Part shown: in pieces, positions 20,056-64,000 of the stretch | Layout: every line of letters starts with the position of its first letter | How positions within the stretch are numbered: the first letter of the stretch is position 1 | Source: an uncultured Gammaproteobacteria bacterium | Lineage (GTDB): Bacteria; Patescibacteriota; Patescibacteriia; UBA1558; S5-K13 | Direction: 5' to 3' | DNA length: 64,000 bases | Assembly (NCBI GenBank): GCA_964640635.1 | Contig: CAZXFD010000002.1 | Coordinates: forward strand, 179,115 to 243,114 | Program-made: the position numbers and the translations under genes | The notes under the pieces: generated by a model | The model's input: the letters and a program-made list of their open reading frames with translations, nothing else | What the model was told of the DNA's origin: nothing | Database searches by the model: none

Positions 20056-22983
20056 CTAGGATTTACTACGTTTATTAATTACATCTAATAATTTTGGTGC
20101 CTGCTTGCTCAATTCCTTTGTAAAAATGTCACTCATTAAAACTTTTAAAATCTTCGGATTAAATGGGGTCTTTCCATCGTTTATAAGATCTATCAAATTT
20201 CTTTGATGCTTAACTAATTGTTGAATCATGTCGGGACTTACATTATTACCAACGGTATAAGAAGAAACGTGCATTTTTCTAAACAATTCTAATGTTTCTT
20301 TTCCACTATATATTATATCTATTACTTTTTTCTGAGTCTCATCTTTCCAGTGGACTGTCATATCGCTTTTACTACGAATATCTGCGCCGGGCTCGAATCC
20401 TACATTAGACCGCATCTTTCCGTCAATTCCAGTAACAGCCATTTTATCATATTTTAGATTATACTGTCCAGCCTCTTTAGAAATATTATTGGCCATCAAA
20501 GCTAATTGTTCTTCTATTCTTTTATTTGATCCTTTAAGTAGTTGTCTATCTACTACCATTTCTCTTCTTAAAAACTCCATCAATCCTTTACTAGACTTTT
20601 CATATCCAAATTTCTCTAAAATTGCTTCTAAATTATAATCCTTTGCTGCTTTCTGCATAACAACATTAACTTCTGCTATATTCCCACTTGCAAGAGCTTG
20701 ACTTATAGCCGGCACTTGATCTTTATCAAGACTTCCTAAGTTAGCATATTTAGCTTCTGCCTTTCTATTTTCTGCATCACTAACAATTTTACTAGACTCC
20801 TCTTTATTAAGTAGGTTATTCTGTAAAACTTCTTGTTGTTGTAAATCCGTTTCCTTTGTAAAAACTTCTTTCTGTTCTGATAAATATATTTTATTATCAT
20901 GCAAATCTGAAGATGTAACTGTAGTTTTCTTATCTAGATCATTTAGTTCCACCTCTCTTTTAGCAAAAGTATTTATAGCGTCTTGACTCTTCTTTTTTCT
21001 TTCTGATCCACTTATCGTTCTATCACTTTTAATACCCTCTAAAATAGAATTTAAATCATCTGCCATAGATCTTTTTTCTGCAGCAATAATATCTTTAATA
21101 AAAGTCTGTGTGCCACCCCTAGTGCTCATATCCTTAGACAACTCTATCTTCTCTTTAATTTGTTTACTCTCATTTATAAATTTTTGTAAGTCAGCCTCTT
21201 TTAGCTCTATTTGTTTTTCAATACTTTGCTTATCAGCGGCAGTTTTAGCTTTCCCCTTCTTTTTAGTCAATGCTTGAATTTCGAATTGAGCATCTCTAAT
21301 CTCTAAATCCTTATTTACTTGATCTGTTACTAATGCTGTTTCTTCTACTTTTGTTCCCACGACTCCCAAATCCAAGGCTCTTTTAACTCTGTCATTTAAT
21401 TCAATCCTCTTATCAATTTTACCAGAAGTTTCGGTCATCTTATCAATGCTTGTAACACGAGAATCTATAACACTCTTTCTTTTATTACCAAAAACAGCAG
21501 CTGCATACATTTTGCCCCATCCACCAAAAGTTCTTTCATTTTTTTCTCTTTCTGCCTTTGATGCGCCTGTTTTTCCATACCAAACTTTTCCAAAGTTAGA
21601 ATCATTAAACCCATCAACGGCATGTTTTTGTACCGCATCTTTTCTTTCTTTAACTCTATCTTTTCTATCCACATCTATCCTTTCTTTTCTAAGTTGATTT
21701 GCATATGTTCCTGGAATATATTGACCTACCCCAGTTTTACTTACAGCAGAATTCAAAGGATCTACAATGCCTCTTTTCAAAGATCCACCCACTCTTCTAG
21801 TAACACCTCTTTGCATACTCTTTACACCTCTCTTTACATATCCGCTCATCTTCTTCGTCATATTCCCCGCAATATTTCCTCCAGCAACACCAGACTCCTG
21901 AGCAATTTTCATTGACGTTATAAGAAGAGCAATAACTACAACATAATCAAACATATCGTCAATAGTAACAATAGAACTAGCCCCTATTACTTCTGACCCC
22001 TTTGTATTAGCGCCCTTAGTCATGCCCGCTACAATACTCCCACTTTGTGGATTTTCTGGACTTTGTGATCTTTGTATTGTAAGAAGTGACAAATAAAGAA
22101 AAAATGCGAGGACTGGTCCTGTCGTAAGCTGTTTTCCAAACTCAGTCCACCATCTGGAAGAGTATTTACTTCCAAAAGGAGTGCCTTGAAGAAAAAACGC
22201 CATTGGAGACAAAACAACAAGAACCCAAATATACACAATTCTCCAAACCAGTATCACAACAAACATCAAAAGTATTGAAGAAAGAATGACAAGCATAGCA
22301 AGTCCCAGGCCTGCCGTTGTAACTGCCGCTAAGGCTGCATTAAATTCATTATCTCCCTCAAGCTTACTCACAGCAGCATAGTCAAAGTTAAAAACTTTAT
22401 CCAAATGAAGTCCATAAATAATATTTCCTGATGCAATATCTTTGAATCCATTTACGAATGTAAGCATTACAACTTGAGAAAAATCTATCATAAGACCCAC
22501 TATTGTTTTTGAAAAATTTATTATAACAGCGGTCATTATTAATTTGCCGAGCCATTTCTTGTAAGAATATGCTTCATAATTTATTATTGTAGAAAATGCA
22601 ATGACAAGAAGGACTAATATAAAAAACATATTACAAATATCTCTAGTTATCTTCCATCCTTCATCTACGGCAGTGACTCCTTTTGAAAACTTGGTCCATT
22701 GAGCAAATGAAACAAACAATTGTAATTCAAGTTTAATAATTTCCCCTACTAAAGCTGCTAAAACACCTATAAGAGCCACTACTATATTTGCTACACCAGC
22801 ATAAAATACATTTGCATTTACAAAAAGCGGTGACACAAGCAAAATGGCAACCACAAAAACAGAAGACCCTACAAAAATCTTTCTTTTCTTTGATAACAAA
22901 TTCCATGATAACAAAAACTTTTGAAATATTTTTTTCAATCTATAATTCCACAGCGCTAAAGTTTTCTTAAATAATTTTTTCAT
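20056..22983 (-). CDS. Large polytopic membrane protein with a long charged coiled-coil tail; architecture resembles VirB6/TrbL-like T4SS channel proteins
   Basis: About 7-8 predicted TM helices in the first roughly 330 aa with Trp-containing loops, then about 650 aa of K/E/D-rich hydrophilic sequence. The assignment is by architecture only. Confidence 0.3.
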   Translation of the reverse strand: MKKLFKKTLALWNYRLKKIFQKFLLSWNLLSKKRKIFVGSSVFVVAILLVSPLFVNANVFYAGVANIVVALIGVLAALVGEIIKLELQLFVSFAQWTKFSKGVTAVDEGWKITRDICNMFFILVLLVIAFSTIINYEAYSYKKWLGKLIMTAVIINFSKTIVGLMIDFSQVVMLTFVNGFKDIASGNIIYGLHLDKVFNFDYAAVSKLEGDNEFNAALAAVTTAGLGLAMLVILSSILLMFVVILVWRIVYIWVLVVLSPMAFFLQGTPFGSKYSSRWWTEFGKQLTTGPVLAFFLYLSLLTIQRSQSPENPQSGSIVAGMTKGANTKGSEVIGASSIVTIDDMFDYVVVIALLITSMKIAQESGVAGGNIAGNMTKKMSGYVKRGVKSMQRGVTRRVGGSLKRGIVDPLNSAVSKTGVGQYIPGTYANQLRKERIDVDRKDRVKERKDAVQKHAVDGFNDSNFGKVWYGKTGASKAEREKNERTFGGWGKMYAAAVFGNKRKSVIDSRVTSIDKMTETSGKIDKRIELNDRVKRALDLGVVGTKVEETALVTDQVNKDLEIRDAQFEIQALTKKKGKAKTAADKQSIEKQIELKEADLQKFINESKQIKEKIELSKDMSTRGGTQTFIKDIIAAEKRSMADDLNSILEGIKSDRTISGSERKKKSQDAINTFAKREVELNDLDKKTTVTSSDLHDNKIYLSEQKEVFTKETDLQQQEVLQNNLLNKEESSKIVSDAENRKAEAKYANLGSLDKDQVPAISQALASGNIAEVNVVMQKAAKDYNLEAILEKFGYEKSSKGLMEFLRREMVVDRQLLKGSNKRIEEQLALMANNISKEAGQYNLKYDKMAVTGIDGKMRSNVGFEPGADIRSKSDMTVHWKDETQKKVIDIIYSGKETLELFRKMHVSSYTVGNNVSPDMIQQLVKHQRNLIDLINDGKTPFNPKILKVLMSDIFTKELSKQAPKLLDVINKRSKS

Positions 22984-23058: not shown

Positions 23059-26000
23059 TTATTGTGGGTATATTTTTATTGAACATGTATCAGCTCCACA
23101 CATATAGGTTCCCTTGCTTTTACCCCAGCTATCTGTAATTTGTAAATATGGTGTATATTTACAACATCCCCTTCCATTTCCACAATTATCTAACCATGTA
23201 TCGCTCATAGGGCTACAAGAATATAAATGTGAAAATGTTAAATAGCTTTTTTCATCGCCAATGTCTTCTTTACAAGCATCTTCATGATCTCCCCATGTTT
23301 TAGCAAAACACTGCATACCACTTGGACAAAGAACATTTTCTCCACACTCCGCACCCCATGTATTAGCACTTGTAGATGGAAAAGCTTGTTTATAGGTTAC
23401 TCCACATCTTCTTATACAATCAGGTTTACGATTTTTAAATGGACCTGCAACAGTAAAACAATCTCCATTTTCAGAATTACTATCCCAACAAATTTTTATT
23501 TCTCTTATTGGAGTTTGATTTGGCACTGCATAAGCATAAAAAGAAATATCTATGTTGGTATTATTTTTTCCAACTACAACATAATCCTTTGCTGGATTTC
23601 GATTAATAGAAAATCCTTCATTGCCCTCTCCGCCACCATCAGAAACTGATTTTACAGATCTAATTACAGGATTTTCACCACCAACAACATTCCAATTAAT
23701 ACTATTATCTTGTAACCACTCGACTCCATTAAAAGTTTTGAGATTACTATTCGGAATACCGACTATTAATTGCCCCAAATTAGTTTTTGCTTGCGCTATA
23801 TCATTTCCATAATACCCTGGAAACACACTACTAAAACCACCTGATACAAATATTGGATCTTGACTTGTACCAACAGCAGCTCCAAAACTTGGGTGTAAAG
23901 AATTAGCCACCCAAGAAGCAGAGTTTGTAGGCCCAACTTGTAAAATCATTTTATTATTTCTAGCGAAACCAGAAATACCATAGGAGGAAGATGATCCAGA
24001 CAACATAGACGGACAAAATATATCAGATGCTAGAGGGTCTTTACAAAATTCTCGCCATCCATCTATAGCTATTGCTGGTAATGTAGCGGTAGTAAATTTT
24101 TCAATAGAAATAGTATTTAAATAAAAATTATTTGCTTTAAACTTTACAGAACCATCTAAAATAGCAGAAGTTTTGCAACTCTTTAAACACTTATCATTTG
24201 CACAACTAGTTAGCATAGATTGTGTTCCTGATTGATTGAATATGCTACAAGTATTACAATCAGAATTTCCAAAACGCAAACAATCTTGATCAAAAAGTGG
24301 ATTAGGATTATTGCTATTAGGAAGCATGCGATTTTTTTGACAACCATCTGGACAACAACCATTTTTTCTATTTTCACATTTTCTTGTGCCATCAATATTG
24401 CGACAAGCACTATAAGGAATTTCTGCCGACCTACAATCCGCTACATTATTATATAACAATGGAGATCTTGGATCTTGATAATTATTAATATCATTTCCAA
24501 AACATCTTACAATCTCGCTTTCTAAACTTGGATATATATACGATGCGATCCCTGTGCTTGAATAAGGATCTCTATATATAGAACAAGAATGTGATATATT
24601 GTCTAATTGGTTAATAATTTCAAAGTGTGCAACAATATCACAAGATGTATCAAACTCATTGGGTGTTTGACTTTTACATAAACCAACATTAAAACTTCTA
24701 GGACCAGAAGGATTAGTGTTTTGTCCACCAAATTGATTAACTAGAGTTGCATACACAGATGTAGATGAAGAATTTCTAAGACATCCTCTTCCAAAGCTAA
24801 AATCTCCGGATTCAATAGGATCATACTTACAGTCTTTACCACATTTGCCAGTACGACTTGGCATTGGATTAACTCCTGAATCATTTATATAGTAACCATA
24901 AGTTCTAGGATTACAAGAAAGACTTTTCATGCGACGAGTATGTCCCATATTCGTCCAACCACAATGATCACCTTCCCATTCACGATAGCTTATCTGATGA
25001 GTATCTGTGGGACACACAGGAGTATCTGGCCAATCACCATTACAAGATTCTAAATATATATTGGTAGAATTTGAAAACTCAATATCATATGCATAAATAA
25101 GCATAGGCATAGATACTGATCCTACAAAAATATCATCAAAACTATCTGATAAATTTGCATTTGCTGTTAACCCAAATTGATCGCCAGAAAACATTCCGCC
25201 CAAAGCATTATCTTTTACTATTATGCTAGCTTGCCCTTGCACATCAAAATTAAGCTCGCTTCTTGTTTTATAATTGGTCAGCCAATATGTATTGCTACCA
25301 ATATTATTGGCACTAATCATTGAATCGTTTGGCACCAATACTAGTTTAATACACTGGTTACTTGCATCTGTTTGCAGACAATATATTCTATCTTCTGTAG
25401 TTTTATAATTATTTCCTACAATACACATCGTGGCACCCTCTGTAAGTTTAGAAACGATATCTGCTTGAGGGGCATAAGATGTAGAATCAACTTCTCCAGA
25501 TATTGCATCCACTGGATACCAGGAAAGACATCTATAATTCAAATTGCTTGGATCATTATATGATGTTTTATAGCCTGTATTTATAAATCTAGACTTATCG
25601 TAGTCAAGACAGAACCCAAACCATCCCATATTTTTTGCAATTTTTTTAATTTTCATTGTACTCGTTGTGATACCATCATTTGACGTCTCTATTGTATTTG
25701 GAATATCTATACCTTCATAAGGATAAAAAAGTGTTTCCATTCCATAATTTACACTCCTATAACTACAATCACTTGACTGTCCTTGATTCAAAACATTTGA
25801 CTCTCCAGGCTTTAGGGCACCATAAGATGGCTGAGAAATATTTGCATTTGCAAATGCTGAATCTTTTCCAGTAATTATTGCATATTTACTTCCTGCGCCA
25901 TTTAATTCATAATTTAAAACCATACTATTATTTGGCGTCCAAGAGAAAGGAGAGTCTTTTTCTGGATAAAGTCTACAAGACTTTAGACTAGAAATATTTA

Positions 26001-29000
26001 TTATACCAGCAGTATCTGCAATACTAGAGAGTGGATTTGTATATGAAATACCATCTTTATATAAATACTGTCCTCTTTTTATAATATGGCCTAGATTATA
26101 TGTAGACATACTAGAAGATGTCGTTTTATATGTACTTAGTGAATGAGGGGCATAAGCGCCTGGCATAGAATATCCACTATAGATCATATTAGACCATGAT
26201 CCAGAACCTAAGTCAGAATAATATTTTTCCAAATTAAGAGCCTTATCATTTTGATTTTTTGGAATATAGTTTGCACAATCTCCTGATGAGGAAAGATTAT
26301 TACATCCAATAAGTGAAACACAAGAGTATTTATCCTGTCCTTCAGTATCTACTGTTTTTATTTTTGATGAACATGTATCCCATTCTCCACACTCTCTATC
26401 TCTTACAACTTTTAGAAGTTCGTTGGAATCATTATTGTAGCTTGGATCATTTGAATTGATACCAACAAGAGATCCATTTTCATAACTTCTTAAAGCATTG
26501 GACGATAGGTTTGATTTAGAAAGATTATTAAATAACACGCAACCATCTTTTACACTTGCCTTACTACAGCTTGTTTTATCAAGCTCTTCATTATCTATAT
26601 AGTAATAATTACCCTCCATTTTCTCAAACCTAATATCTTTTAATTTTACTACTGCACCACTTTTACCTTTCACATAAAATGCAACATTACAATAATTAGC
26701 ACCTGGCAAGATTTTATATAGCCCCGATATTTGATGCGATTTATTATCTGATTCCTGTATAAAATAATTTGCCTTCGTAAATGGAAATGCGTATGGAATT
26801 GAACCAGATATAACACCCCCCTTAGGATTATTATTTTCCCCACCGACTACACTGTCTTCAACGTATGATATTGCTCCATCTTGACCTCTTGGACCACAGC
26901 TTAAAAATGTGCTTATATACTCTTTACCATCAGTGGTCAAGCCATCAAACTCTACATTAGCACTCAATCTATAAACAGCATTTTCACTAACAGAAAAGCC
27001 AAAAGGATTACTTTTTGAAGCCTTATAGATAATAGTATTTTTATCTGAGATATTAAAAGAAAGAACATTGTTCACACTTGAAGCCAACAAATTACTTACA
27101 TTTTCAAATTGTCCGTTTTGCCAATTTGCCGAACTCCAAGAACCAGAATTTGTAAAATTGATTTGCTGATGTGTTGCATTTGTAGCTTCTATAGATAAAT
27201 CTTTTGAATCTGTTGGATCTATAAACATAGAACACTTATTTTGATTACTATTACAAGAAACTGAGTAATCGTTGTTGTAGCCTCCAAATGGAGCAATGCC
27301 ACTATCGATATAACTTATATCACTGAGTAATAAATTATAGTTTTCATTATAAATACTTCCTTCACAAGAGATATTGGCATCATTTACATTATAGTATCCC
27401 GCAGCTCTACCGTTTGATGCGTCTGCTTCTTTATACTCGCAAACCTTGTCTCGAGGATGAATTTTATAAATTGTTCCACCACCAGAAACTGAAAACGCCG
27501 AACAATCTCTAAATTCAGAAAGACACAAAATTTTATTACTAGATCCAAAATAATCATCTTGTATATAATTATCTGGATTATTTATTTTGTATACATCTTG
27601 ATATTTACCGTCATCTCCCTTAAATCCAAATGCACTACACCCTTTGTTTGAAGATGCGCATAAATTATTTCTTTCTTTTATAATATATACTAGTCTATCT
27701 TTAGAAACTACTATTGTACTACTAGAGAAATTTCCGGAATTTATGTTTGAATAATTTTTATAGTATGTTCTTCCATTAGAACATTCTCCGCCAGAACTAT
27801 TTGAACAATATGCATTATAGGTTTGTTGAAATGGCATTTCTGAGTTTTGTGTATCTATCATAGCACTACAGCCAACATTCTTTTCATTACATGTATTTGT
27901 AAATTGATGAAAATACCAAGGATTATTATCTCTATCAGAATATTTTTGACATCCTAAATATCCTCTACACGTTGCAGGAGTTACCCAAGAATCTTTGATT
28001 TTGTAAAAATCACTTGTAATTTCTTTTAAGCTTATATTATCTATAAAAAATGTTTTATAATCATCTGGTAATGTTATTGAGAATTTCAATATATAATCCC
28101 CACTTGCTGAAGTTTCTAAGTCACGCCAATTATATTTATACTGCAACCATTCTTGATTATTTTCTAATTGCATCAATCCAAAATCAAGATTATTTACATT
28201 CAAAGCATGGGCTTTAAATAATTTAATTGGATTTAAATTGAGAAATTCTATAGCTGGCTTTGTTTTTTGTTGGGCGGTATCGTGATTATTATTATTTGGA
28301 TTATTATCGTTTGAACTTTTTGCCCAAAAATCAAGAGTATATCTTTTACCAGGAATAAGTGTCTCTCCATTTTGAGTCAAGTTGTATTCTATAGAAACCG
28401 TATTACCAGAGGAAGAATAAACTACCATAGAATGACCATTATACACAGTGGACTCATTACTTGGTGCCTTACTTCCTCCAAAAACTTCCCCCAGAAAAAC
28501 GCCTGAGGGTTCAAAATCTTCAAACAAAACACTTCTTATATTATTTCCATTATTACCCTTATATCTACGACATCCTACGCTTGTTGCACTACATTTTGTA
28601 CTCATAGATGGCACAGCTCTATAGACAACACTAGATCCATCAGATGCTTCTCTTCTTAAATCAATACAACTATCTGTTACCGGAATGGTTTTTGAAAGAA
28701 GTCTATTGTGCGGCTGGGCATCTTTATCATAGAAGGTTCGACAATCTAAATTTGTATTTGGATCACATTGTCCCTCCCCTTCTACATCGGCAAGACCTAT
28801 GTCAGAACAAGTGCTTGTTGCCCCTATTTCAACATTTGTACAAGGTGCCTCACTTTTATTACTCTTTAAAAACCTCCACGTCTTAAGCTGGAATCCACTT
28901 GTATCGGAGCCTTCCCATGTATAATAAATAGTTGATGAAACTGCAGATGGTTTTACGCACTGTCTTAAGTAGCTATAATATTCCCTTGCTTCACCACCCT

Positions 29001-32000
29001 TATTTGCTTTATCAACATTCGTAAACAACTCACAAGACTCTTGTGACGGAGAACAATCTTTTGCAGACCCTGAAATAAAATCTTTATTTTCTAGCCCTAC
29101 AATGCCAGAATTACTTTCAAGAATTTCAAAATAACTTGGATATTGTGAAAATGTTTGATAATTATTACACTCAGATGGACAAATATCTTCTTGAGATACT
29201 ATACCCGACACTATTTGATCCCCATTTTCAGGTTTATATGCCTCACAACCAAGATCGTCTTTGCTACAATATTTAGAATAATTAGCACAACTTACATCTG
29301 GATTTGCAGAATTACAATTATAATAACTTGGGGCTTTTTTCATATGCAAAATACCCTTTTCACCATAATTGTTATACATACTAGGAACACCCACTCCACT
29401 TGAAACATTAGATGCATCATAATTATTCAATTCAAATTGCACTGCATCTATGTAAACGTCTCCACTTACTGCAAATTTAATACTTGCGCCCGATGAATTA
29501 CCATTTACTCCAAAATATCCCGACTTCATTTCCCATTGAGATTCCCCACTAGAGTAATTTGCATCAGTATTAGTAATAGATTCCCCATTTAAAATCAAGC
29601 TTGGGGTAACACTTACCACATCACTCGATCTTAATTTTTTTACTCTATAACTAAGCGTATATAAACCTTTATTTAAAATATTAAAATCTGAATTACTTAT
29701 ATCCAATTTAAGAATACTGTCTCCTTTTGTATGTAGAATAGAGTACCTGCCATCAAAAGCTTCTGTAGTTGTTGTCATAAAATTTGGAGCATCCCATCCA
29801 TCTGGAATCATATCTTCGTTTTCATCTATTTCAAAACTTGGATTTGGAACAAGATTAAGTCCTGGAATAATTTCTATAAATTTTGAACATCCTTCATTAC
29901 CTTTATCACAAGATAATACATTTTTGTTGAAATAATTAAAGTCTGTTGTTGCCCAAACATAATTTCCTTCGGCATTTTTTGTTTTATATTTGGAATATTC
30001 TTTACATCCTGCTTCATCTGGTGGACAAGATTTTAGCGTATCTAGTATATAAGATTTTTCTTTGCCCGCATCATCTTTTAGAGCTACGCATCCTGCGGAT
30101 TTTTCATCACATTTTCTTCCTCTAAATTTCCATATATTTTTTTCTTTGAGACAATATCCATATCCCAAACAGTTTCCATTATCATCTTCTTTGAGACAAT
30201 TTTTTACATCCGCACAATCTTTGTATCTATTTGGTGACTCTGCTGACTCAAGAGCAGAATAGTATCCTTCTGAAGCACATTGTTGTTTTGGGGCTTTTAG
30301 AACCCAATTTGGATCTACAAGTCTACAGAATGGAGACTCGTCTTTTTCTTTCACAACACATCCTCCATATATCCACTCATGATAAAAAGTCTCTTCATAG
30401 CTATTATTACAAGTAGTTTCATTGTTCAAAGCAACTGCCGTTTCTATTTCTTTTGAAACAACGACGCCCTCACTATCGATATTATACTTCATACAATATC
30501 CTTGAGCATTTCCAGTCCCAACCCATTTTACATCAATAGTGGATGCATCCACCCCAAGCATTCCTGCAGCATTACAATTTGCAGCTGAGGTAATATTAAT
30601 ATTGTAAGGGGCGAGACTTACAGATCTATATCCACAATAATTGTCCTTTATGGTTTCATTACCCCTCTTAAAAGTTCCTGTTTTATCATATCCTTCCATG
30701 ACAGAAACTAGCTTACATCCCCTACTATCACATCCTGCTGGATAATTATCTGGGTTTAGTTTGGCTACTTTAAGGGCTGCAAATTCCCAACCCACAGGAA
30801 CAACTCTATTTTTTCTAAGTTTCTTTATGTTGTCATAAGAGTAGCCCTCATCAAGCATTGGTTGTCTAATCGAGGTGCCTATATCTATATAACCAATAAA
30901 TTTATTTCCATCTAAAAGATTTTCATCAATTGCTTCTTTGGTGGTAAGTGGTTCTGTTTCAGCACGTCTAAGCACGTCTGCAAATTTTGAGTCTATTGTT
31001 TTGTTGTTCATTTTTCCCATAAACTCATCACCCATATCCATTTCCATCTCAGCTATAAGATTTATATCTCGTGGATTAATATTCATAGAGATTCTGTTTA
31101 TAGTTGAAAAAATTTCATCAATTATACCCGTTTTACTGCCCACAAAAGATCCAGATCCATCTGCCAAATCTGCTTGTGGCGCTTTTTCTTTCATCAAATT
31201 TTGAATAAGTGTATTTAGGCCCTTACTTACAAGAGTATTTAAAAATATATTTGCCGAATCAACTAGAATATCCTCCGTTCTAAGTTTTGCAGCATCTTCA
31301 TTTCTTTTTTGGATATTAATAAGCTCTTGTTTTGTTAATTCTGCTGGAACTATTAAAGATTTAGTAATAAGGGACCTTTTACCTTTTGGAGAATCTCCTG
31401 CAGTTATATTTGCTACTGTATCAGCATCTGCTTTTTTTACCGCATCCTTAGCTGCCTGCACAGCATCTTGAACAAAATTTGTATCACTTTTTTGAAATGA
31501 AATAGTATCCTTCAAAAGTTCTGCCTGTAATTGCCTTCTTTGATCTGGAGTTAGTTTTGAATTTACAATTGAAGATGTAGGAATACCAAATTTTGAAAGA
31601 TCATATCCCGTAGTTTTTAATACATCCATCAAAGATGAATCATTTAAACTTATTATACTAAGCGGATTAGTAAGTTGAGTTGCAAAATCTCCCCATTTTT
31701 TCTTTAACTCGTCCAAAGAACATCTTGGCTTCATAGACGCTACATCCGTATCTTTCAAATTTAATTTCAAAGAAAGTGCCAAATTAATAGGTAAATCCAT
31801 TGTTGGTGGCTGACATATATTTATTCCATATCCTGAAGCCAAATTATCCAAAAACTCAGCACCAGCCGCTTCTCCTGCAAGTCTTGCTTCATCAACAATA
31901 AGTTTTGTAAACCACTGAGGCTTACCACCTGCATCTCCCGTTGCTATTTGAGTTGCTGCTTTGTATGCAAGCTGATTTGAAAAAGATTGAAATGCTCTCA

Positions 32001-32208
32001 TAAAAGCAACCGAGCCACCCTTGTTCCATAAATAAGTAGTAGCGCCAGATACTCTTTCCCAAACCCATTTACCAGCCTGCAAAACTGATTGAACAGGATC
32101 TGTAAATTGAGCATGTGCCTTTCGTGGAACAAAAAATGAAATATTAGCAGAAAAGAAAAAAACAAAAATCATTATTACTAAAGTTTGTTTTTTATTTTTT
32201 ATATTCAT
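23059..32208 (-). CDS. Giant (3049 aa) cysteine-rich protein with an N-terminal signal peptide and CBM4/9-like beta-sandwich modules
   Basis: N-terminal signal peptide (MNIKNKKQTLVIMIFVFFFSANISFFVPRKAHA). Very high Cys/Asn/Ser/Gly/Tyr content and a recurrent C-x4-6-G-C-x-x-[FY] motif (at least 9 copies, e.g. CDEKSAGCVAL, CSKDDLGCEAY, CNEKNVGCSAM). At least two segments start like CBM4/9 modules (NPSFEIDENEDMIPDGW, FEDFEPSGVFLGEVF). Confidence 0.6.
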   Translation of the reverse strand: MNIKNKKQTLVIMIFVFFFSANISFFVPRKAHAQFTDPVQSVLQAGKWVWERVSGATTYLWNKGGSVAFMRAFQSFSNQLAYKAATQIATGDAGGKPQWFTKLIVDEARLAGEAAGAEFLDNLASGYGINICQPPTMDLPINLALSLKLNLKDTDVASMKPRCSLDELKKKWGDFATQLTNPLSIISLNDSSLMDVLKTTGYDLSKFGIPTSSIVNSKLTPDQRRQLQAELLKDTISFQKSDTNFVQDAVQAAKDAVKKADADTVANITAGDSPKGKRSLITKSLIVPAELTKQELINIQKRNEDAAKLRTEDILVDSANIFLNTLVSKGLNTLIQNLMKEKAPQADLADGSGSFVGSKTGIIDEIFSTINRISMNINPRDINLIAEMEMDMGDEFMGKMNNKTIDSKFADVLRRAETEPLTTKEAIDENLLDGNKFIGYIDIGTSIRQPMLDEGYSYDNIKKLRKNRVVPVGWEFAALKVAKLNPDNYPAGCDSRGCKLVSVMEGYDKTGTFKRGNETIKDNYCGYRSVSLAPYNINITSAANCNAAGMLGVDASTIDVKWVGTGNAQGYCMKYNIDSEGVVVSKEIETAVALNNETTCNNSYEETFYHEWIYGGCVVKEKDESPFCRLVDPNWVLKAPKQQCASEGYYSALESAESPNRYKDCADVKNCLKEDDNGNCLGYGYCLKEKNIWKFRGRKCDEKSAGCVALKDDAGKEKSYILDTLKSCPPDEAGCKEYSKYKTKNAEGNYVWATTDFNYFNKNVLSCDKGNEGCSKFIEIIPGLNLVPNPSFEIDENEDMIPDGWDAPNFMTTTTEAFDGRYSILHTKGDSILKLDISNSDFNILNKGLYTLSYRVKKLRSSDVVSVTPSLILNGESITNTDANYSSGESQWEMKSGYFGVNGNSSGASIKFAVSGDVYIDAVQFELNNYDASNVSSGVGVPSMYNNYGEKGILHMKKAPSYYNCNSANPDVSCANYSKYCSKDDLGCEAYKPENGDQIVSGIVSQEDICPSECNNYQTFSQYPSYFEILESNSGIVGLENKDFISGSAKDCSPSQESCELFTNVDKANKGGEAREYYSYLRQCVKPSAVSSTIYYTWEGSDTSGFQLKTWRFLKSNKSEAPCTNVEIGATSTCSDIGLADVEGEGQCDPNTNLDCRTFYDKDAQPHNRLLSKTIPVTDSCIDLRREASDGSSVVYRAVPSMSTKCSATSVGCRRYKGNNGNNIRSVLFEDFEPSGVFLGEVFGGSKAPSNESTVYNGHSMVVYSSSGNTVSIEYNLTQNGETLIPGKRYTLDFWAKSSNDNNPNNNNHDTAQQKTKPAIEFLNLNPIKLFKAHALNVNNLDFGLMQLENNQEWLQYKYNWRDLETSASGDYILKFSITLPDDYKTFFIDNISLKEITSDFYKIKDSWVTPATCRGYLGCQKYSDRDNNPWYFHQFTNTCNEKNVGCSAMIDTQNSEMPFQQTYNAYCSNSSGGECSNGRTYYKNYSNINSGNFSSSTIVVSKDRLVYIIKERNNLCASSNKGCSAFGFKGDDGKYQDVYKINNPDNYIQDDYFGSSNKILCLSEFRDCSAFSVSGGGTIYKIHPRDKVCEYKEADASNGRAAGYYNVNDANISCEGSIYNENYNLLLSDISYIDSGIAPFGGYNNDYSVSCNSNQNKCSMFIDPTDSKDLSIEATNATHQQINFTNSGSWSSANWQNGQFENVSNLLASSVNNVLSFNISDKNTIIYKASKSNPFGFSVSENAVYRLSANVEFDGLTTDGKEYISTFLSCGPRGQDGAISYVEDSVVGGENNNPKGGVISGSIPYAFPFTKANYFIQESDNKSHQISGLYKILPGANYCNVAFYVKGKSGAVVKLKDIRFEKMEGNYYYIDNEELDKTSCSKASVKDGCVLFNNLSKSNLSSNALRSYENGSLVGINSNDPSYNNDSNELLKVVRDRECGEWDTCSSKIKTVDTEGQDKYSCVSLIGCNNLSSSGDCANYIPKNQNDKALNLEKYYSDLGSGSWSNMIYSGYSMPGAYAPHSLSTYKTTSSSMSTYNLGHIIKRGQYLYKDGISYTNPLSSIADTAGIINISSLKSCRLYPEKDSPFSWTPNNSMVLNYELNGAGSKYAIITGKDSAFANANISQPSYGALKPGESNVLNQGQSSDCSYRSVNYGMETLFYPYEGIDIPNTIETSNDGITTSTMKIKKIAKNMGWFGFCLDYDKSRFINTGYKTSYNDPSNLNYRCLSWYPVDAISGEVDSTSYAPQADIVSKLTEGATMCIVGNNYKTTEDRIYCLQTDASNQCIKLVLVPNDSMISANNIGSNTYWLTNYKTRSELNFDVQGQASIIVKDNALGGMFSGDQFGLTANANLSDSFDDIFVGSVSMPMLIYAYDIEFSNSTNIYLESCNGDWPDTPVCPTDTHQISYREWEGDHCGWTNMGHTRRMKSLSCNPRTYGYYINDSGVNPMPSRTGKCGKDCKYDPIESGDFSFGRGCLRNSSSTSVYATLVNQFGGQNTNPSGPRSFNVGLCKSQTPNEFDTSCDIVAHFEIINQLDNISHSCSIYRDPYSSTGIASYIYPSLESEIVRCFGNDINNYQDPRSPLLYNNVADCRSAEIPYSACRNIDGTRKCENRKNGCCPDGCQKNRMLPNSNNPNPLFDQDCLRFGNSDCNTCSIFNQSGTQSMLTSCANDKCLKSCKTSAILDGSVKFKANNFYLNTISIEKFTTATLPAIAIDGWREFCKDPLASDIFCPSMLSGSSSSYGISGFARNNKMILQVGPTNSASWVANSLHPSFGAAVGTSQDPIFVSGGFSSVFPGYYGNDIAQAKTNLGQLIVGIPNSNLKTFNGVEWLQDNSINWNVVGGENPVIRSVKSVSDGGGEGNEGFSINRNPAKDYVVVGKNNTNIDISFYAYAVPNQTPIREIKICWDSNSENGDCFTVAGPFKNRKPDCIRRCGVTYKQAFPSTSANTWGAECGENVLCPSGMQCFAKTWGDHEDACKEDIGDEKSYLTFSHLYSCSPMSDTWLDNCGNGRGCCKYTPYLQITDSWGKSKGTYMCGADTCSIKIYPQ

Positions 32209-59602: not shown

Positions 59603-59971
59603 TTTATCCTCCCAGATAAACTTTATTTATTTTTCAAGGCACTGTCCTTGTCTGAATATACCATAATAGCATACCCCGGCCTTCTTGTCAAGTATTGTCA
59701 TCAACTTCTTGTTGACAACAATTATTTTATGATATATAATGATAGTATATAAGGGCAGATTAGAGCTCTCTGTCATATAATTATTGACACTCCTGCGCAT
59801 TTACAATTTGGCCATTTTTCATTTACAATTGATTTGCTATTGGCTATTTTGGCTATTTACCATTTAAATACAAAAAGAATAAAATATAGCTAAATAATCA
59901 AATAGCCCAATAAATTGAAAATAATAAATTATAAATCAATTGAAAATTACTAAATATTAAATTAAAAATAT

Positions 59972-60730
59972 ATGCTAAGCGATCTAAAAGATCTTGGCTT
60001 TACGCCAAACGAAATAAAAGTTTATGAATCATTACTAAAACTCGGAGAAACTCCTGTTGGGGGCATTATTAATGACCTGAAAATTCATAGACAAATTGCC
60101 TACAATGCGCTTGATACTCTAGAAAAACGAGGCATGATATCAAAAACAATGAAAAACAAAGTTTATCATTTCAAAGTTGAAGATCCAGAGATAATTGTAG
60201 AAAATATCCAAAAACAAGAACTTATCGCAAAAAGACTATCAGGACTGATAAAGCTTGAAATGGGTAAGACAAAAATAGACAATTCAATTGATATTTACAA
60301 TGGCAGAGAAGGAGTTAGAAAATTTCAAATTCATATGATGAATGAAATATCTACCAATGGAACAATATATATAATTCAAGGTGGTGCTACAGCATACCAA
60401 CAAACAATGGGATTAGACTTTATAATAAAAAAAATAGACCCTATAAGAATAAGAAAAGGTATTATTGTAAAAAACGTAATGTCTGAAAAAGACCGGTTAG
60501 AAAATAAAAAATACATGGGAAGTATAAATGCAAAAAGCAAAAACCTCAGGCAAGTTAAATTCCTTCCCTATCAAAATATTATCAATCCAACATTTACAGA
60601 TATCTGGGAAAATCATGTATCATTCATATCTTCTGGGAAAGAACCATTTGCAATAGATATCAAAAATCAAGAATTTTATAATTCATATTTAGAGCACTTT
60701 AATGTGCTTTGGAAAATGGCAAAGAAATAG
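59972..60730 (+). CDS. TrmB-family transcriptional regulator (paralogue of 43918..44700)
   Basis: LGFTPNEIKVYESLLKLGETPVGGIINDLKIHRQIAYNALDTLEKRGMISK wHTH; the C-terminal end resembles the other copy (FNVLWKMAKK vs FKVLWNIAKE). Confidence 0.6.
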   Translation: MLSDLKDLGFTPNEIKVYESLLKLGETPVGGIINDLKIHRQIAYNALDTLEKRGMISKTMKNKVYHFKVEDPEIIVENIQKQELIAKRLSGLIKLEMGKTKIDNSIDIYNGREGVRKFQIHMMNEISTNGTIYIIQGGATAYQQTMGLDFIIKKIDPIRIRKGIIVKNVMSEKDRLENKKYMGSINAKSKNLRQVKFLPYQNIINPTFTDIWENHVSFISSGKEPFAIDIKNQEFYNSYLEHFNVLWKMAKK

Positions 60731-61278: not shown

Positions 61279-61995
61279 CTAATTCCTTATTCCACACTTT
61301 TTTACATATTTTTCCATAATCTTCTTGAACTCTTTTAACATAGCGGGTGGAAATCCTAGTTCACCACTTAAATCTTCGTCTAATAGTTTTCCTCTATCTT
61401 CAAAATTTTGCAAAAATACTAAATTAGCACCTTTTAATTCCATGCCTAATTTATCTATATCATCACTAGTAAAATACTTAGGAAGTATTGTTGTTCTAAA
61501 TTCATATTTAAGCTTCGAATTAATTAAATAATTCTTTGTTTTTTCTACTTCCCTATATAGAGAATTCTTGCACCTTGTAATAGTTTCAAATAAACTCTTA
61601 TGCGCCTTATAATCCATTGCAATATAATCAACTAGTTTTTCATCTATTAATTCTTTTAATTTCAAAAAATTACTTCCATTTGTATCAAGCTTTATCTTAT
61701 ATCCCATTTTTTTAACACTCACAATAAATTCTTTGAGTCTTGGTTGTAAAAGTGGCTCTCCTCCTGTTATAGAAAGTGCTTCTAATTTGTGTTTTCTTTT
61801 TTTCAAAAAATCTAGCACATCATTTTCCGGCACATCAAAAATCACTTCCTGATTAAAGGAAATAAGTTCTGGATTATGACAATAACGACAACGAAAATTA
61901 CATCCTTGAGTAAAAATTATTGCAGAAATCTTCTTTGGATAATCAATAAGCGACGTTTTTTGTAAACCTGAAATTTTTAAACCATTATTTTCCAT
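61279..61995 (-). CDS. nrdG: Anaerobic ribonucleoside-triphosphate reductase activating protein (radical SAM)
   Basis: GCNFRCRYCHNPE (C-x3-C-x2-C), ITGGEPLLQ; 238 aa, immediately downstream of the nrdD pieces. Confidence 0.8.
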   Translation of the reverse strand: MENNGLKISGLQKTSLIDYPKKISAIIFTQGCNFRCRYCHNPELISFNQEVIFDVPENDVLDFLKKRKHKLEALSITGGEPLLQPRLKEFIVSVKKMGYKIKLDTNGSNFLKLKELIDEKLVDYIAMDYKAHKSLFETITRCKNSLYREVEKTKNYLINSKLKYEFRTTILPKYFTSDDIDKLGMELKGANLVFLQNFEDRGKLLDEDLSGELGFPPAMLKEFKKIMEKYVKKCGIRN

Positions 61996-62051
61996 TTTGA
62001 TAATAATAAACCCCCATCAAGAAAGTCTCGATGGGGGTATAAACTAAATAA

Positions 62052-62204
62052 CTAAACCTTTGCACACTTTCTTTCATTAAATTCAGCTTGCTTACCATCA
62101 TTCCATTGAGAAACTGGTCGCAAGTATCCAACTACACGAGAGTAGACCTCACATTTTTGTCTTTTTGGGGTCTCATTTAAGATTTTGTTTTTGTCTTCTT
62201 CCAT
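62052..62204 (-). CDS. Stand-alone glycyl-radical C-terminal module of NrdD (50 aa), separated from the main nrdD ORF
   Basis: ATG at 62204. Translation MEEDKNKILNETPKRQKCEVYSRVVGYLRPVSQWNDGKQAEFNERKCAKV contains the NrdD glycyl-radical signature RVVGY (T4 NrdD has RRTCGYLG). It is below the ORF-track length cutoff and in a different frame from the upstream ORF. Confidence 0.55.
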   Translation of the reverse strand: MEEDKNKILNETPKRQKCEVYSRVVGYLRPVSQWNDGKQAEFNERKCAKV

Positions 62205-62286
62205 AATATTAGCTTCTTAGCCAGATAGCTTCGCAGCTTCTTAGCTAATGTTAATTATTATTTATATTATAACTCTTTTTAAATTA

Positions 62287-64000
62287 TTAGTAAAAAGTCT
62301 TGTGATCACTACCTTGGGCTGCCTGATACCCTATTTCTGCATCACATTGAGGGCAGAAATAATGCTCTCCTGCGATATATCCGTGCTTTGGACACACAGA
62401 AAAAGTTGGCGTGATTGAAAAATATGGTAGCTTGTAATTTTTTGCAACTTTTTTTACAAGTTTTTTACAAACCTCTGGATCCTCTATTCTCTCACCAATA
62501 AACAAATGAATTACTGTTCCGCCAGTATAGAGCGCCTGTAAGTCATCTTGCTTATCTAATATTGAAAACAAATCGTCAGTATAATTAACTGGCAAATGAG
62601 TTGAATTTGTATAAAATGCTGGCGCACCATTTTTGTAAGATTCTTCATTTGCAATGATAATATCTGGAAAATTCTTTTTGTCGAGAAGTGCAAACCTATG
62701 ACTCGTTCCTTCTCCTGGAGTTGCTTCTAAATTAAACATATCTCCAGTTTCTTCTTGATATTTTTGAAGTCTATCTCTCATAAAATTCATTACTTCAAGA
62801 GCAAATTTCTTTCCTTCCTCAGAGCCTATATCTTTTTTCATAAAGTTTAGACATGATTCATTCATTCCAAGAAGCCCTATTGTATTAAAATGATTTTTCC
62901 AATAAGCATTAAATCTCTTGTAAATATCACGGAGATAAAATTTGGAATATGGATAAAGTCCCCGCTCAGTAAGTTGTTCTAATATTTTTCTCTTTGTTTC
63001 AAGAGTATCTTTTGCAATATCCATGAGCTCTCCGAGCTTATCAAAATATTCTTTCTTTGTTTTAGAAAGATACCCAATTCTAGGCATATTTATTGTAACC
63101 ACTCCAATGCTTCCTGTAAGTGGATTTGATCCAAAAAGTCCTCCACCTCTTTTTCTAAGAACCCTATTATCAAGTCTAAGACGACAGCACATACTTCTTG
63201 CATCGTCAGGACTCATATCTGAATTTACAAAGTTAGCAAAATAAGGAATTCCATACTTTGCAGTCATCTCCCAAATCTTTTTGTATTTTGGATTATCCCA
63301 ATCAAAGTCTTTGGTCACATTGTAAGTAGGTATTGGAAATGAAAATACGCGTCCGTTTGCATCACCTTCCATCATCACCTCTGCGAAAGCCTCGTTAAAC
63401 ATATCCATTTCTTTTTGGAACTCCCCATAAGTTTCTTTTTGAAGTTCACCGCCAATAATAACTGGCTCATCTTTCATTATTTTTGGAACTGTGAGATCAA
63501 GAGTAATATTTGTAAATGGATTTTGAAATCCAACTCTTGTTGGAACTCCCATATTAAACATAAATTCTTGAATAGCTTGCTTTACTTGTTTGTAGTCAAG
63601 CTTATCGTATCTTATAAAAGGAGCTAAGAGCGTATCAAAATCTGCAAAAGCCTGAGCTCCATTTGCCTCTCCTTGAAGTGTATAGAAAAAATTAACAGCC
63701 TGACCAAGAGCTGTTCGCAAGTGCTTCGCTGGTTTGCATGCAATTTTACCTGCAACACCTTTGAAGCCGACCATAAGCAAGTCTTTCAAATCCCAACCAC
63801 AACAATATACTGCGAGTAAATCCAAATCATGAATATGAAGCTCTCCTGATTTTTCAGCGTCTCTTGCTTGCTTTGAATAAATTTTGTTTAGCCAATAATT
63901 TTTCTGAACAGTAGAGGCAATATAACTATTTAATCCCTGAAGTGAAAAAGCCATATTTGCATTTTCTCTCACTTGCCAATCTAGCTCTCCAATATAGTTT
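62287..64000 (-). CDS. nrdD: Anaerobic ribonucleoside-triphosphate reductase NrdD, catalytic body (N-terminus beyond the window end; lacks the glycyl-radical tail)
   Basis: RENAN...GELHIHDLDL aligns with T4 NrdD NENAN...GIIHVHDIDY. Zn-ribbon remnant CPKHGYIAGEHYFCPQC at the C-terminus. The frame stays open upstream of the GTG at 63970 to the window edge. Confidence 0.8.
   Translation of the reverse strand, partial: NYIGELDWQVRENANMAFSLQGLNSYIASTVQKNYWLNKIYSKQARDAEKSGELHIHDLDLLAVYCCGWDLKDLLMVGFKGVAGKIACKPAKHLRTALGQAVNFFYTLQGEANGAQAFADFDTLLAPFIRYDKLDYKQVKQAIQEFMFNMGVPTRVGFQNPFTNITLDLTVPKIMKDEPVIIGGELQKETYGEFQKEMDMFNEAFAEVMMEGDANGRVFSFPIPTYNVTKDFDWDNPKYKKIWEMTAKYGIPYFANFVNSDMSPDDARSMCCRLRLDNRVLRKRGGGLFGSNPLTGSIGVVTINMPRIGYLSKTKKEYFDKLGELMDIAKDTLETKRKILEQLTERGLYPYSKFYLRDIYKRFNAYWKNHFNTIGLLGMNESCLNFMKKDIGSEEGKKFALEVMNFMRDRLQKYQEETGDMFNLEATPGEGTSHRFALLDKKNFPDIIIANEESYKNGAPAFYTNSTHLPVNYTDDLFSILDKQDDLQALYTGGTVIHLFIGERIEDPEVCKKLVKKVAKNYKLPYFSITPTFSVCPKHGYIAGEHYFCPQCDAEIGYQAAQGSDHKTFY

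Follow-up and report, generated by a model that had tools for sequence, protein, structure and literature searches.

An interrupted gene for an anaerobic, class III ribonucleotide reductase (RNR) raises the question of whether the enzyme is broken or is made as two chains. The gene, nrdD, lies at one end of the window, that is, the whole stretch of 64,000 nt analysed here (contig CAZXFD010000002.1 of assembly GCA_964640635.1). It is present in two pieces: a catalytic body that stops before the radical-bearing glycine, and a separate small open reading frame (ORF) of 50 amino acids (aa) that carries this glycine and is followed by nrdG, the activase gene. A first-pass annotation, made from the sequence alone, had reported this arrangement and proposed a naturally two-piece RNR, programmed recoding, or a recent frameshift or pseudogenisation as its cause. 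We find the first proposal strongly supported, by conservation across divergent lineages, purifying selection and constant synteny. The evidence, all of it computational, points to a functional, obligately two-subunit class III (anaerobic) RNR, a reading to which we assign a probability of about 0.78.

The nrdD body, the small ORF and nrdG all lie on the minus strand. The body (62290..64000) runs past the window end upstream, leaving 570 codons visible, and has the C-terminus ...CPQCDAEIGYQAAQGSDHKTFY (also written ...FCPQCDAEIGYQAAQGSDHKTFY), with a TAA stop (62287..62289) just past the zinc ribbon. After a gap of exactly 82 nt (62205-62286) and at a frame offset of +1, the small ORF (62052..62204) begins at its own ATG (62204-62202) and encodes the 50 residues MEEDKNKILNETPKRQKCEVYSRVVGYLRPVSQWNDGKQAEFNERKCAKV plus a stop. 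It is a free-standing glycyl-radical module, with the motif R-V-V-G-Y at 62124..62138 and the GGA codon of Gly26 at 62127-62129. A spacing of 56 nt separates it from nrdG (61279..61995), which encodes a radical-SAM activase of 238 aa (Pfam Radical_SAM and Fer4_12; TIGR02495 NrdG2, E 1.4e-56). The body matches positions 1-528 of the 562 in the Pfam NRDD profile (E 7.6e-186) and NCBIfam NF006126 (E 1e-280), and the small ORF matches positions 530-560 of the same profile (PF13597; E 1.6e-10, over the gathering score), so that the two matches divide the profile cleanly between them and leave out position 529 alone. Full-length relatives of the body are encoded at the loci L002 and L040. ORF coordinates and profile halves thus agree with the earlier description of a split gene, of a small ORF with its own ATG at 62204, and of nrdG as the next gene. 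Against Pfam and NCBIfam, the small ORF matches only PF13597 and NrdD NCBIfam models, not Gly_radical (PF01228), and NCBIfam has no dedicated model naming it; its homologues are labelled hypothetical or partial NrdD in their source annotations. A phmmer search of the 50-aa ORF against PDB sequences gave no NrdD match, the query being too short.

The zinc ribbon, read from the translation as C-P-K-H ... C-P-Q-C (62344..62394), is kept on the body and is followed by extra sequence, the tail DAEIGYQAAQGSDHKTFY (62290..62343), which contains no cysteine. The tail has the CxxC-D-x-E signature common to split relatives. In total, about 32 residues are added at the cut (18 aa of body tail and 21 aa of small ORF, versus a 7-aa linker in continuous relatives), in line with the first pass, which had put the linker at about 35 aa over both pieces, versus about 12 in T4 NrdD. 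A possible origin of the tail (DxEIGY...) as a degenerate duplicate of the glycine module found no support, the best E value being 0.34 when a hidden Markov model (HMM) built from 120 module sequences was run against 62 tails. In an alignment of 35 split and continuous sequences (A3), the invariant residues, in the numbering of the fused pieces, include C271/C272 of the MCCRL finger loop, C536, C549 and C552 of the zinc ribbon, and R593, G596 and Y597 of the radical motif. The hallmarks of class III RNR are therefore present as a barrel with the Cys finger loop, a zinc ribbon on the body and nrdG nearby; the RVxGY motif, usually sought in the same polypeptide, sits on a separate ORF in another frame, which makes the enzyme a two-chain variant of the NrdD family.

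The same junction was recovered repeatedly. The exact 50-aa protein occurs on independently assembled contigs from six SRA runs, each with the body stop, a gap of 82 or 89 nt, the small ORF and nrdG. Comparison of the window with the related loci L002-L006 (L numbers denote our loci), confined to the final 40 codons of the small ORF, gave 15-19 synonymous versus 2-5 non-synonymous changes, a ratio of non-synonymous to synonymous proportions (pN/pS) of 0.03-0.08. Between phylum-level lineages synonymous sites are saturated, with pN at 0.11-0.35, and the gap evolves through indels. Judged by these substitutions, the small ORF is under strong purifying selection. Given a junction common to six assemblies and such low ratios, we reject the recent frameshift or pseudogene that had been considered. 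The phage context implied earlier is also contradicted, since the window is a cellular chromosome of the Patescibacteria, or candidate phyla radiation (CPR), encoding RNase J, LeuRS, iPGM and ABC transporters, with three tRNAs and a GC content of 31%, and is 99% identical to a Candidatus Komeilibacteria contig. An Rfam scan of the window returned nothing besides the three tRNAs.

Comparison of orthologous loci, which the first-pass annotation had proposed as a check, shows that the split recurs together with purifying selection on the small ORF. Among 34 related loci found in GTDB with one genome per species, 15 are split at the same place (L002-L007, L009, L012-L015, L017, L023, L027); they carry Patescibacteria labels from several candidate phyla, plus one 'Pacearchaeota' contig. 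Another 16 are continuous and come from deltaproteobacterial, spirochaetal and some CPR-labelled genomes and from Aenigmarchaeota with inteins. All 16 continuous relatives have exactly 7 aa between the last CxxC of the zinc ribbon and the 'SR' of the radical motif. In split bodies of the window's type, CxxC is followed by D-x-E, in many cases as DxEIGY, and then by 8-44 residues of tail, and the small ORFs start 8-20 residues ahead of the conserved (K/L)R(Q/T)xCE(V/I)(Y/F)SR. The order body, small ORF, nrdG is constant in all of the about 20 split cellular loci checked for nrdG (the 15 GTDB representatives, L035, L037, L039 and the window's own clade). The same order, with an ATP-cone on the body, is found with divergent small ORFs in Microgenomates, Parcubacteria and a 567-kb contig. 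The gaps measure 9, 11, 16, 17, 18, 32, 62, 65-67, 82, 85, 88-89 and 94 nt, frame offsets of 0, 1 and 2 are all seen, and the bodies stop with TAA, TAG or TGA. A strong Shine-Dalgarno sequence, AGGAGG, precedes the small-ORF ATG in L009 and L035, and the small-ORF stop and nrdG start overlap as TAATG in L012 and L017, with a similar overlap in L035. This pattern of gaps, frames and stops looks like independent or coupled initiation within an operon, and the lineages with gaps of 9-18 nt and overlapping stop and start codons look translationally coupled.

Both pieces also occur as separate proteins in sequence databases. The small ORF has 431 homologous clusters at 90% identity within reach of a word-index search; the best 120 of these are all 39-78 aa long, and 114 of the 120 begin with Met. 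An exhaustive HMMER search with the body through 1.84 billion cluster representatives gave 4330 hits, and the best 150, at 50% identity, were classified. One-piece proteins account for 61, and at least 71, about half, stop past the zinc ribbon without a glycine motif. Among these 71 there are 27 with CxxC-DxE like the window, 13 with a 'CPYxHT' ribbon, and 31 others, a few of them possibly truncated. One body with the CPYxHT ribbon, encoded at L046 and containing an intein, has a glycine module of 57 aa 16 nt downstream.

We ran AlphaFold2 (AF2) on an artificial fusion of body and small ORF, using a 91-row alignment (A4) of the fusion, one-piece and body-only homologues, and small ORFs. The single-sequence run reached a predicted local distance difference test (pLDDT) of 34; with the A4 alignment pLDDT was 91.6 and the predicted template modelling score 0.91. 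Residues 21-50 of the small ORF scored 93-96, the first 8 residues of the body tail about 82 and its last 10 about 50. Only some 20 residues around the cut lay at about 50, so that the cut is predicted to fall in a flexible, exposed region. The top Foldseek matches of the model were all solved NrdDs, with the P. copri enzyme best (8p2s_B, TM 0.75), followed by those of T. maritima, S. thermophilus and T4; a sequence search of PDB with the body likewise matched solved NrdDs. Charge differs between the two cut ends: the N-terminal extensions of the modules have a mean charge of +2.0 (92% positive) and the body tails a mean of -2.0 (77% negative).

Taken together, these observations suggest the following working model. 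The large subunit has an ATP-cone, seen in relatives, a zinc ribbon, and a ten-stranded barrel that bears the Cys finger loop. The chain is cut in a predicted surface linker, which joins the zinc ribbon to the strand heading into the radical loop. The 50-aa product would be translated from its own ATG, and its Gly26 would be turned into a glycyl radical by the neighbouring NrdG through hydrogen-atom abstraction. The loop of this small chain would then dock non-covalently into the barrel beside the finger-loop cysteines, as the C-terminus of one-piece NrdD does, and its basic N-terminal extension may pair with the acidic tail of the body. Because the body lacks a glycine loop, the small protein would be an obligate subunit and not a rescue part. 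The activase of pyruvate formate-lyase (PFL) can place a radical on a 7-mer peptide (PMC13450708), in P. copri NrdD the glycyl-radical domain shows high mobility and has to move out of the barrel (PMC11226230), and the small protein GrcA gives PFL a glycine loop in trans (PMC8683613); these precedents make a two-chain mechanism feasible.

As to what the split might bring, the oxygen-labile part could serve as a 'fuse' that is cheap to replace. Because oxygen cuts glycyl-radical proteins at their glycine, the loss would be limited to a 50-aa peptide instead of an enzyme of about 690 aa. We regard this as the most likely benefit of the split and hold it tentatively, at rather less than an even chance; it may be absent altogether if the fission was neutral.

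The non-coding sequence around the small ORF bears on this benefit. A consensus scan found a promoter-like TTTACT-17-TATAAT (62266..62294, minus strand; 10 of 12 positions), whose -35 hexamer falls on the final codons of the body and its stop. In an alignment of the window's close relatives (A1), the non-coding block AAAGAG-TATAATATA--TAA-AATTAA is invariant in 8 of them, with TTTAC(T/C) 17 nt before it, and the sequence on either side is variable, with indels. Between the small ORF and nrdG, a scan found an intrinsic-terminator-like hairpin with a T-rich tail (62010..62038, minus strand; 13 pairs, 7 of them GC), the structure of which is kept in 7 relatives, with 9 consensus pairs, 5 showing compensatory double changes. 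Since the small ORF stands between a kept promoter-like block and a terminator, it would probably have its own short transcript in this clade, in excess of body and activase, and we infer that it is transcribable as such a unit. The promoter-like element and terminator suggest a separate supply of a consumable radical subunit, and a terminator inside the operon, before nrdG, suggests attenuated expression of the activase relative to that subunit.

The stretch between the promoter-like block and the ATG is hypervariable in close relatives. In the window it holds a degenerate, hairpin-capable 8-nt tandem repeat (62209..62246, minus strand; Tandem Repeats Finder: period 8, 4.8 copies), within which GCTAAGAAGCT occurs twice (62211-62221 and 62235-62245), with 0.02 occurrences expected by chance; the two direct repeats noted in the gap by the first pass are thus real. 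The hairpin of the 8-nt repeat has a predicted energy of -14.5 kcal/mol, only marginally better than shuffled sequences (z -1.8). At the same site, L002, L005 and L040 have unrelated GC hairpins, L045 has three clean copies of GCTACGAA, and L003, L004 and L006 have nothing. We therefore rejected the direct repeats as a functional signal, as part of a hypervariable array that is replaced or missing in close relatives. Stable hairpins (-8 to -20 kcal/mol) are also present in the long gaps between body and module of L002, L005, L012, L013, L037 and L040, with no sequence similarity between lineages.

Modules of this kind are found in viruses as well. Searching IMG/VR viral contigs for the module yielded 80 loci (L048-L127), 63 of which have a short NrdD-type glycine ORF alone, NrdD body and nrdG both being absent within 3 kb. 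In L068, L077, L082, L097 and L108 the orphan ORF includes its own zinc ribbon, and so has a different cut point, and in L111 the large subunit of terminase is encoded beside the module. A coding sequence of the module kind (144 aa, 2686-3120 of L128, GenBank KP703175) is annotated as 'anaerobic ribonucleoside triphosphate reductase' in the archaeal virus ANMV-1. The viral orphan modules may be spare parts for host class III RNRs.

Several points weigh against the two-subunit enzyme or its proposed benefit. No NrdG is known to activate a free peptide of about 50 aa. The docking in the AF2 model comes from a covalent fusion and from an alignment that includes one-piece homologues, and is thus largely homology transfer. 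L047 encodes a body-only NrdD with no module within 3 kb. Neighbour-joining trees of the bodies mix split with continuous forms along short internal branches and do not separate a single fission from repeated ones. The promoter and terminator calls are consensus matches, which are common at 31% GC (14 found versus 7 expected), and a clear Shine-Dalgarno sequence is lacking before the small ORF in the window's clade. In other lineages the operons are tight and apparently coupled, and an excess of small subunit is not indicated there, so that the fuse benefit may not be general.

Among the alternatives, the one that survives best holds that the fission was selectively neutral: with the glycine loop buried and held by many contacts, two non-covalent chains would still work, with neither a fuse role nor separate regulation. 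The location of the cut, in a linker for which AF2 predicts disorder, agrees with this, as do the interleaving of split and continuous forms in the tree, the many lineages with tightly packed or coupled ORFs, which suggest roughly equimolar production, and the split class II RNRs NrdJa/NrdJb, which have no known benefit (PMC9669993). However, the split is present in about half of the nearest cluster representatives, the cut ends gained conserved, complementary charges, and in the window's clade a terminator and a conserved promoter-like block were acquired around the small ORF; the solitary modules of viral contigs also argue for its usefulness as a separate unit. We consider neutral fission unlikely on balance, though a serious contender.

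Much weaker is the proposal that the small protein is a spare part for a separate one-piece NrdD, the body-only protein being inactive or using another radical source. Orphan modules on viral contigs, and the one-piece paralogue directly upstream of the split set in L023, are in keeping with it. The body, however, retains every invariant catalytic residue and always adjoins a module and nrdG, and no second nrdD or second module is present within the 64-kb window, which makes this explanation very improbable.

A single NrdD chain might also be restored by recoding (frameshift, read-through or bypass) or by protein ligation. The ribosome bypasses a 50-nt gap in gene 60 of T4, and body and small ORF share a frame in L002, L009 and L014. 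Yet the gaps range from 9 to 94 nt with all three frame offsets and three stop codons, and further stops lie in frame at offset 0, in the gap of L002; neither a slippery site nor a take-off or landing sequence is conserved, and the variability of gap length, frame and stop excludes a conserved recoding signal. Moreover, the small ORFs start with ATG, several of them behind a Shine-Dalgarno sequence, and initial Met is almost universal in their best database homologues (114 of 120). We therefore reject the programmed recoding offered in the first pass. A split intein was likewise rejected, because the extra sequence amounts to 18 + 17 aa (8 + 8 aa in relatives) versus about 100 + 35 aa, with no intein Pfam match in either piece. 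A remnant of a group I intron or homing endonuclease was rejected on the grounds of gaps down to 9 nt, no Rfam match beyond tRNAs and no ORF in the gap; the first pass had rightly judged that 82 nt could not hold a group I intron, a point that those shorter gaps reinforce.

That the split is an error of sequencing or assembly, or a mutation that inactivated the gene recently, can practically be set aside: poor assemblies of this organism do occur, as L001 is chimeric right past the gap, but the junction stands in six independent assemblies, split relatives at 60-94% identity come from many studies, and both pieces are under purifying selection. L001, a Candidatus Komeilibacteria S5_K13 contig and the closest one from a named metagenome-assembled genome, retains the body stop and gap and becomes chimeric immediately past them (2376-2580), jumping to a match of window positions ~60460-60580 (a TrmB-like gene) and from there to reversed nrdD sequence; the public genome is misassembled at this point.

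The two-piece class III RNR is, from the computational evidence, widespread in uncultured lineages. We propose, as a speculation that is possible and well short of probable, that the module of about 45-60 aa is an autonomous, exchangeable protein cofactor, an obligate and renewable 'radical cartridge' for the body-only class III RNRs of Patescibacteria and DPANN-like archaea, and that viral orphans re-arm or take over host bodies. If so, the module would correspond, for class III RNR, to GrcA and to its homologue in phage T4, and the 'spare part' idea would widen from formate lyases to ribonucleotide reductases. In glycyl-radical enzymes the radical loop is thought to need tethering to the barrel, and the access of the activase to the buried loop is a long-standing question. 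A natural free loop of 50 residues would allow activation by NrdG to be studied separately from docking and radical transfer to the cysteine. The arrangement might offer oxygen-sensitive, genome-reduced symbionts a means of limiting the cost of oxygen damage, and the viral orphans could be auxiliary viral genes of a new kind. With the small ORF annotated as 'hypothetical' or 'partial NrdD' and the body seemingly truncated, the ability of CPR and DPANN organisms to make deoxyribonucleoside triphosphates could be misjudged in metabolic reconstructions.

Other features of the family were seen along the way. L023 (1608-6505) is a tandem arrangement, in which the one-piece paralogue (768 aa) has an unusual SRVVGK motif; 3 nt past it comes a split body without a cone (581 aa), then a module of 46 aa and an overlapping nrdG. 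In L047 (3001-6771), the body-only protein (725 aa) has a helical acidic tail and is encoded on an archaeal-looking contig with a thermosome gene nearby; the 523-aa ORF downstream of it has no Pfam or PHROG match. Several body-only NrdDs end in Cys-pair tails (CKACKG, DCNCLG, CKVCK, CCNC, DACCES, SCCK, CESCGD and SCGNDC, seen in the cluster representatives P0182, P0204, P0226, P0228, P0229, P0248, P0266 and P0267), which recall the redox-active Cys pairs at the C-termini of class I and class II RNRs. The nearest NrdD representatives (P0121-P0270) are mostly 800-1900 aa long and match the query in 2-5 separate stretches, with breaks recurring near query residues 60, 108, 158, 270, 300, 432 and 496. 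These breaks point to a subfamily very rich in inteins; L046 has Intein_splicing and LAGLIDADG matches.

Elsewhere in the window, a giant ORF of 3049 aa (23059-32208, minus strand) neighbours a 975-aa ORF (20056-22983) with no Pfam match. Short direct repeats (tttacaatt twice, ttggctattt twice, and ggccattttt) lie in an AT-rich region at 59800-59870 (plus strand), about 100 nt upstream of a TrmB-family regulator gene (59972-60730), for which they may be an operator.

We found no description of a split or two-chain NrdD, or of class III RNR in CPR/Patescibacteria, beyond interrupted phage nrdD, in a literature search that covered few subscription-journal papers, so that a prior description is possible. 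Compared with the one-piece NrdD and NrdG systems of T4, E. coli, T. maritima and P. copri, the locus shares the fold, finger-loop cysteines, zinc ribbon, RVxGY motif and adjacent activase, and differs in that the glycine loop of those enzymes is in the same chain, past the zinc ribbon. The interrupted phage RNR genes resemble it in that nrdD is annotated as more than one ORF; examples are the group I intron in T4 nrdD, the nrdA of Aeh1 split by mobE, and the nrdD fragments of Aeromonas phage phiAS4 (PMC3653736). Those cases, however, are caused by introns, inteins, homing endonucleases or lineage-specific fragmentation, whereas the split NrdD has no intervening element, a gap as short as 9 nt, and a cut site kept across very divergent cellular lineages. 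Closer in layout are NrdJa/NrdJb of P. aeruginosa and Thermus phage phiYS40, in which an RNR chain is encoded by two consecutive ORFs a few nt apart and the C-terminal piece, with a zinc-finger or tail element, acts in trans (PMC9669993, PMC3653736); they differ in being class II (B12-dependent), in the large size of NrdJb, and in that the radical-bearing residue is not on a small piece. The analogy with GrcA/YfiD drawn in the first-pass annotation is useful but inexact. GrcA/YfiD, known from E. coli with a homologue in phage T4, is likewise a small free-standing radical-glycine protein that is activated by the activase and supplies its loop in trans to the barrel (PMC8683613, PMC13450708), and a 2026 review knows spare-part proteins for formate lyases only (PMC13450708). 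It has about 127 aa, belongs to the Gly_radical family of PFL, and rescues an enzyme normally equipped with a loop itself, whereas the NrdD module has 50 aa, belongs to the NRDD family and not to Gly_radical/GrcA, lacks the zinc ribbon, and would serve a partner body that never has a glycine loop.

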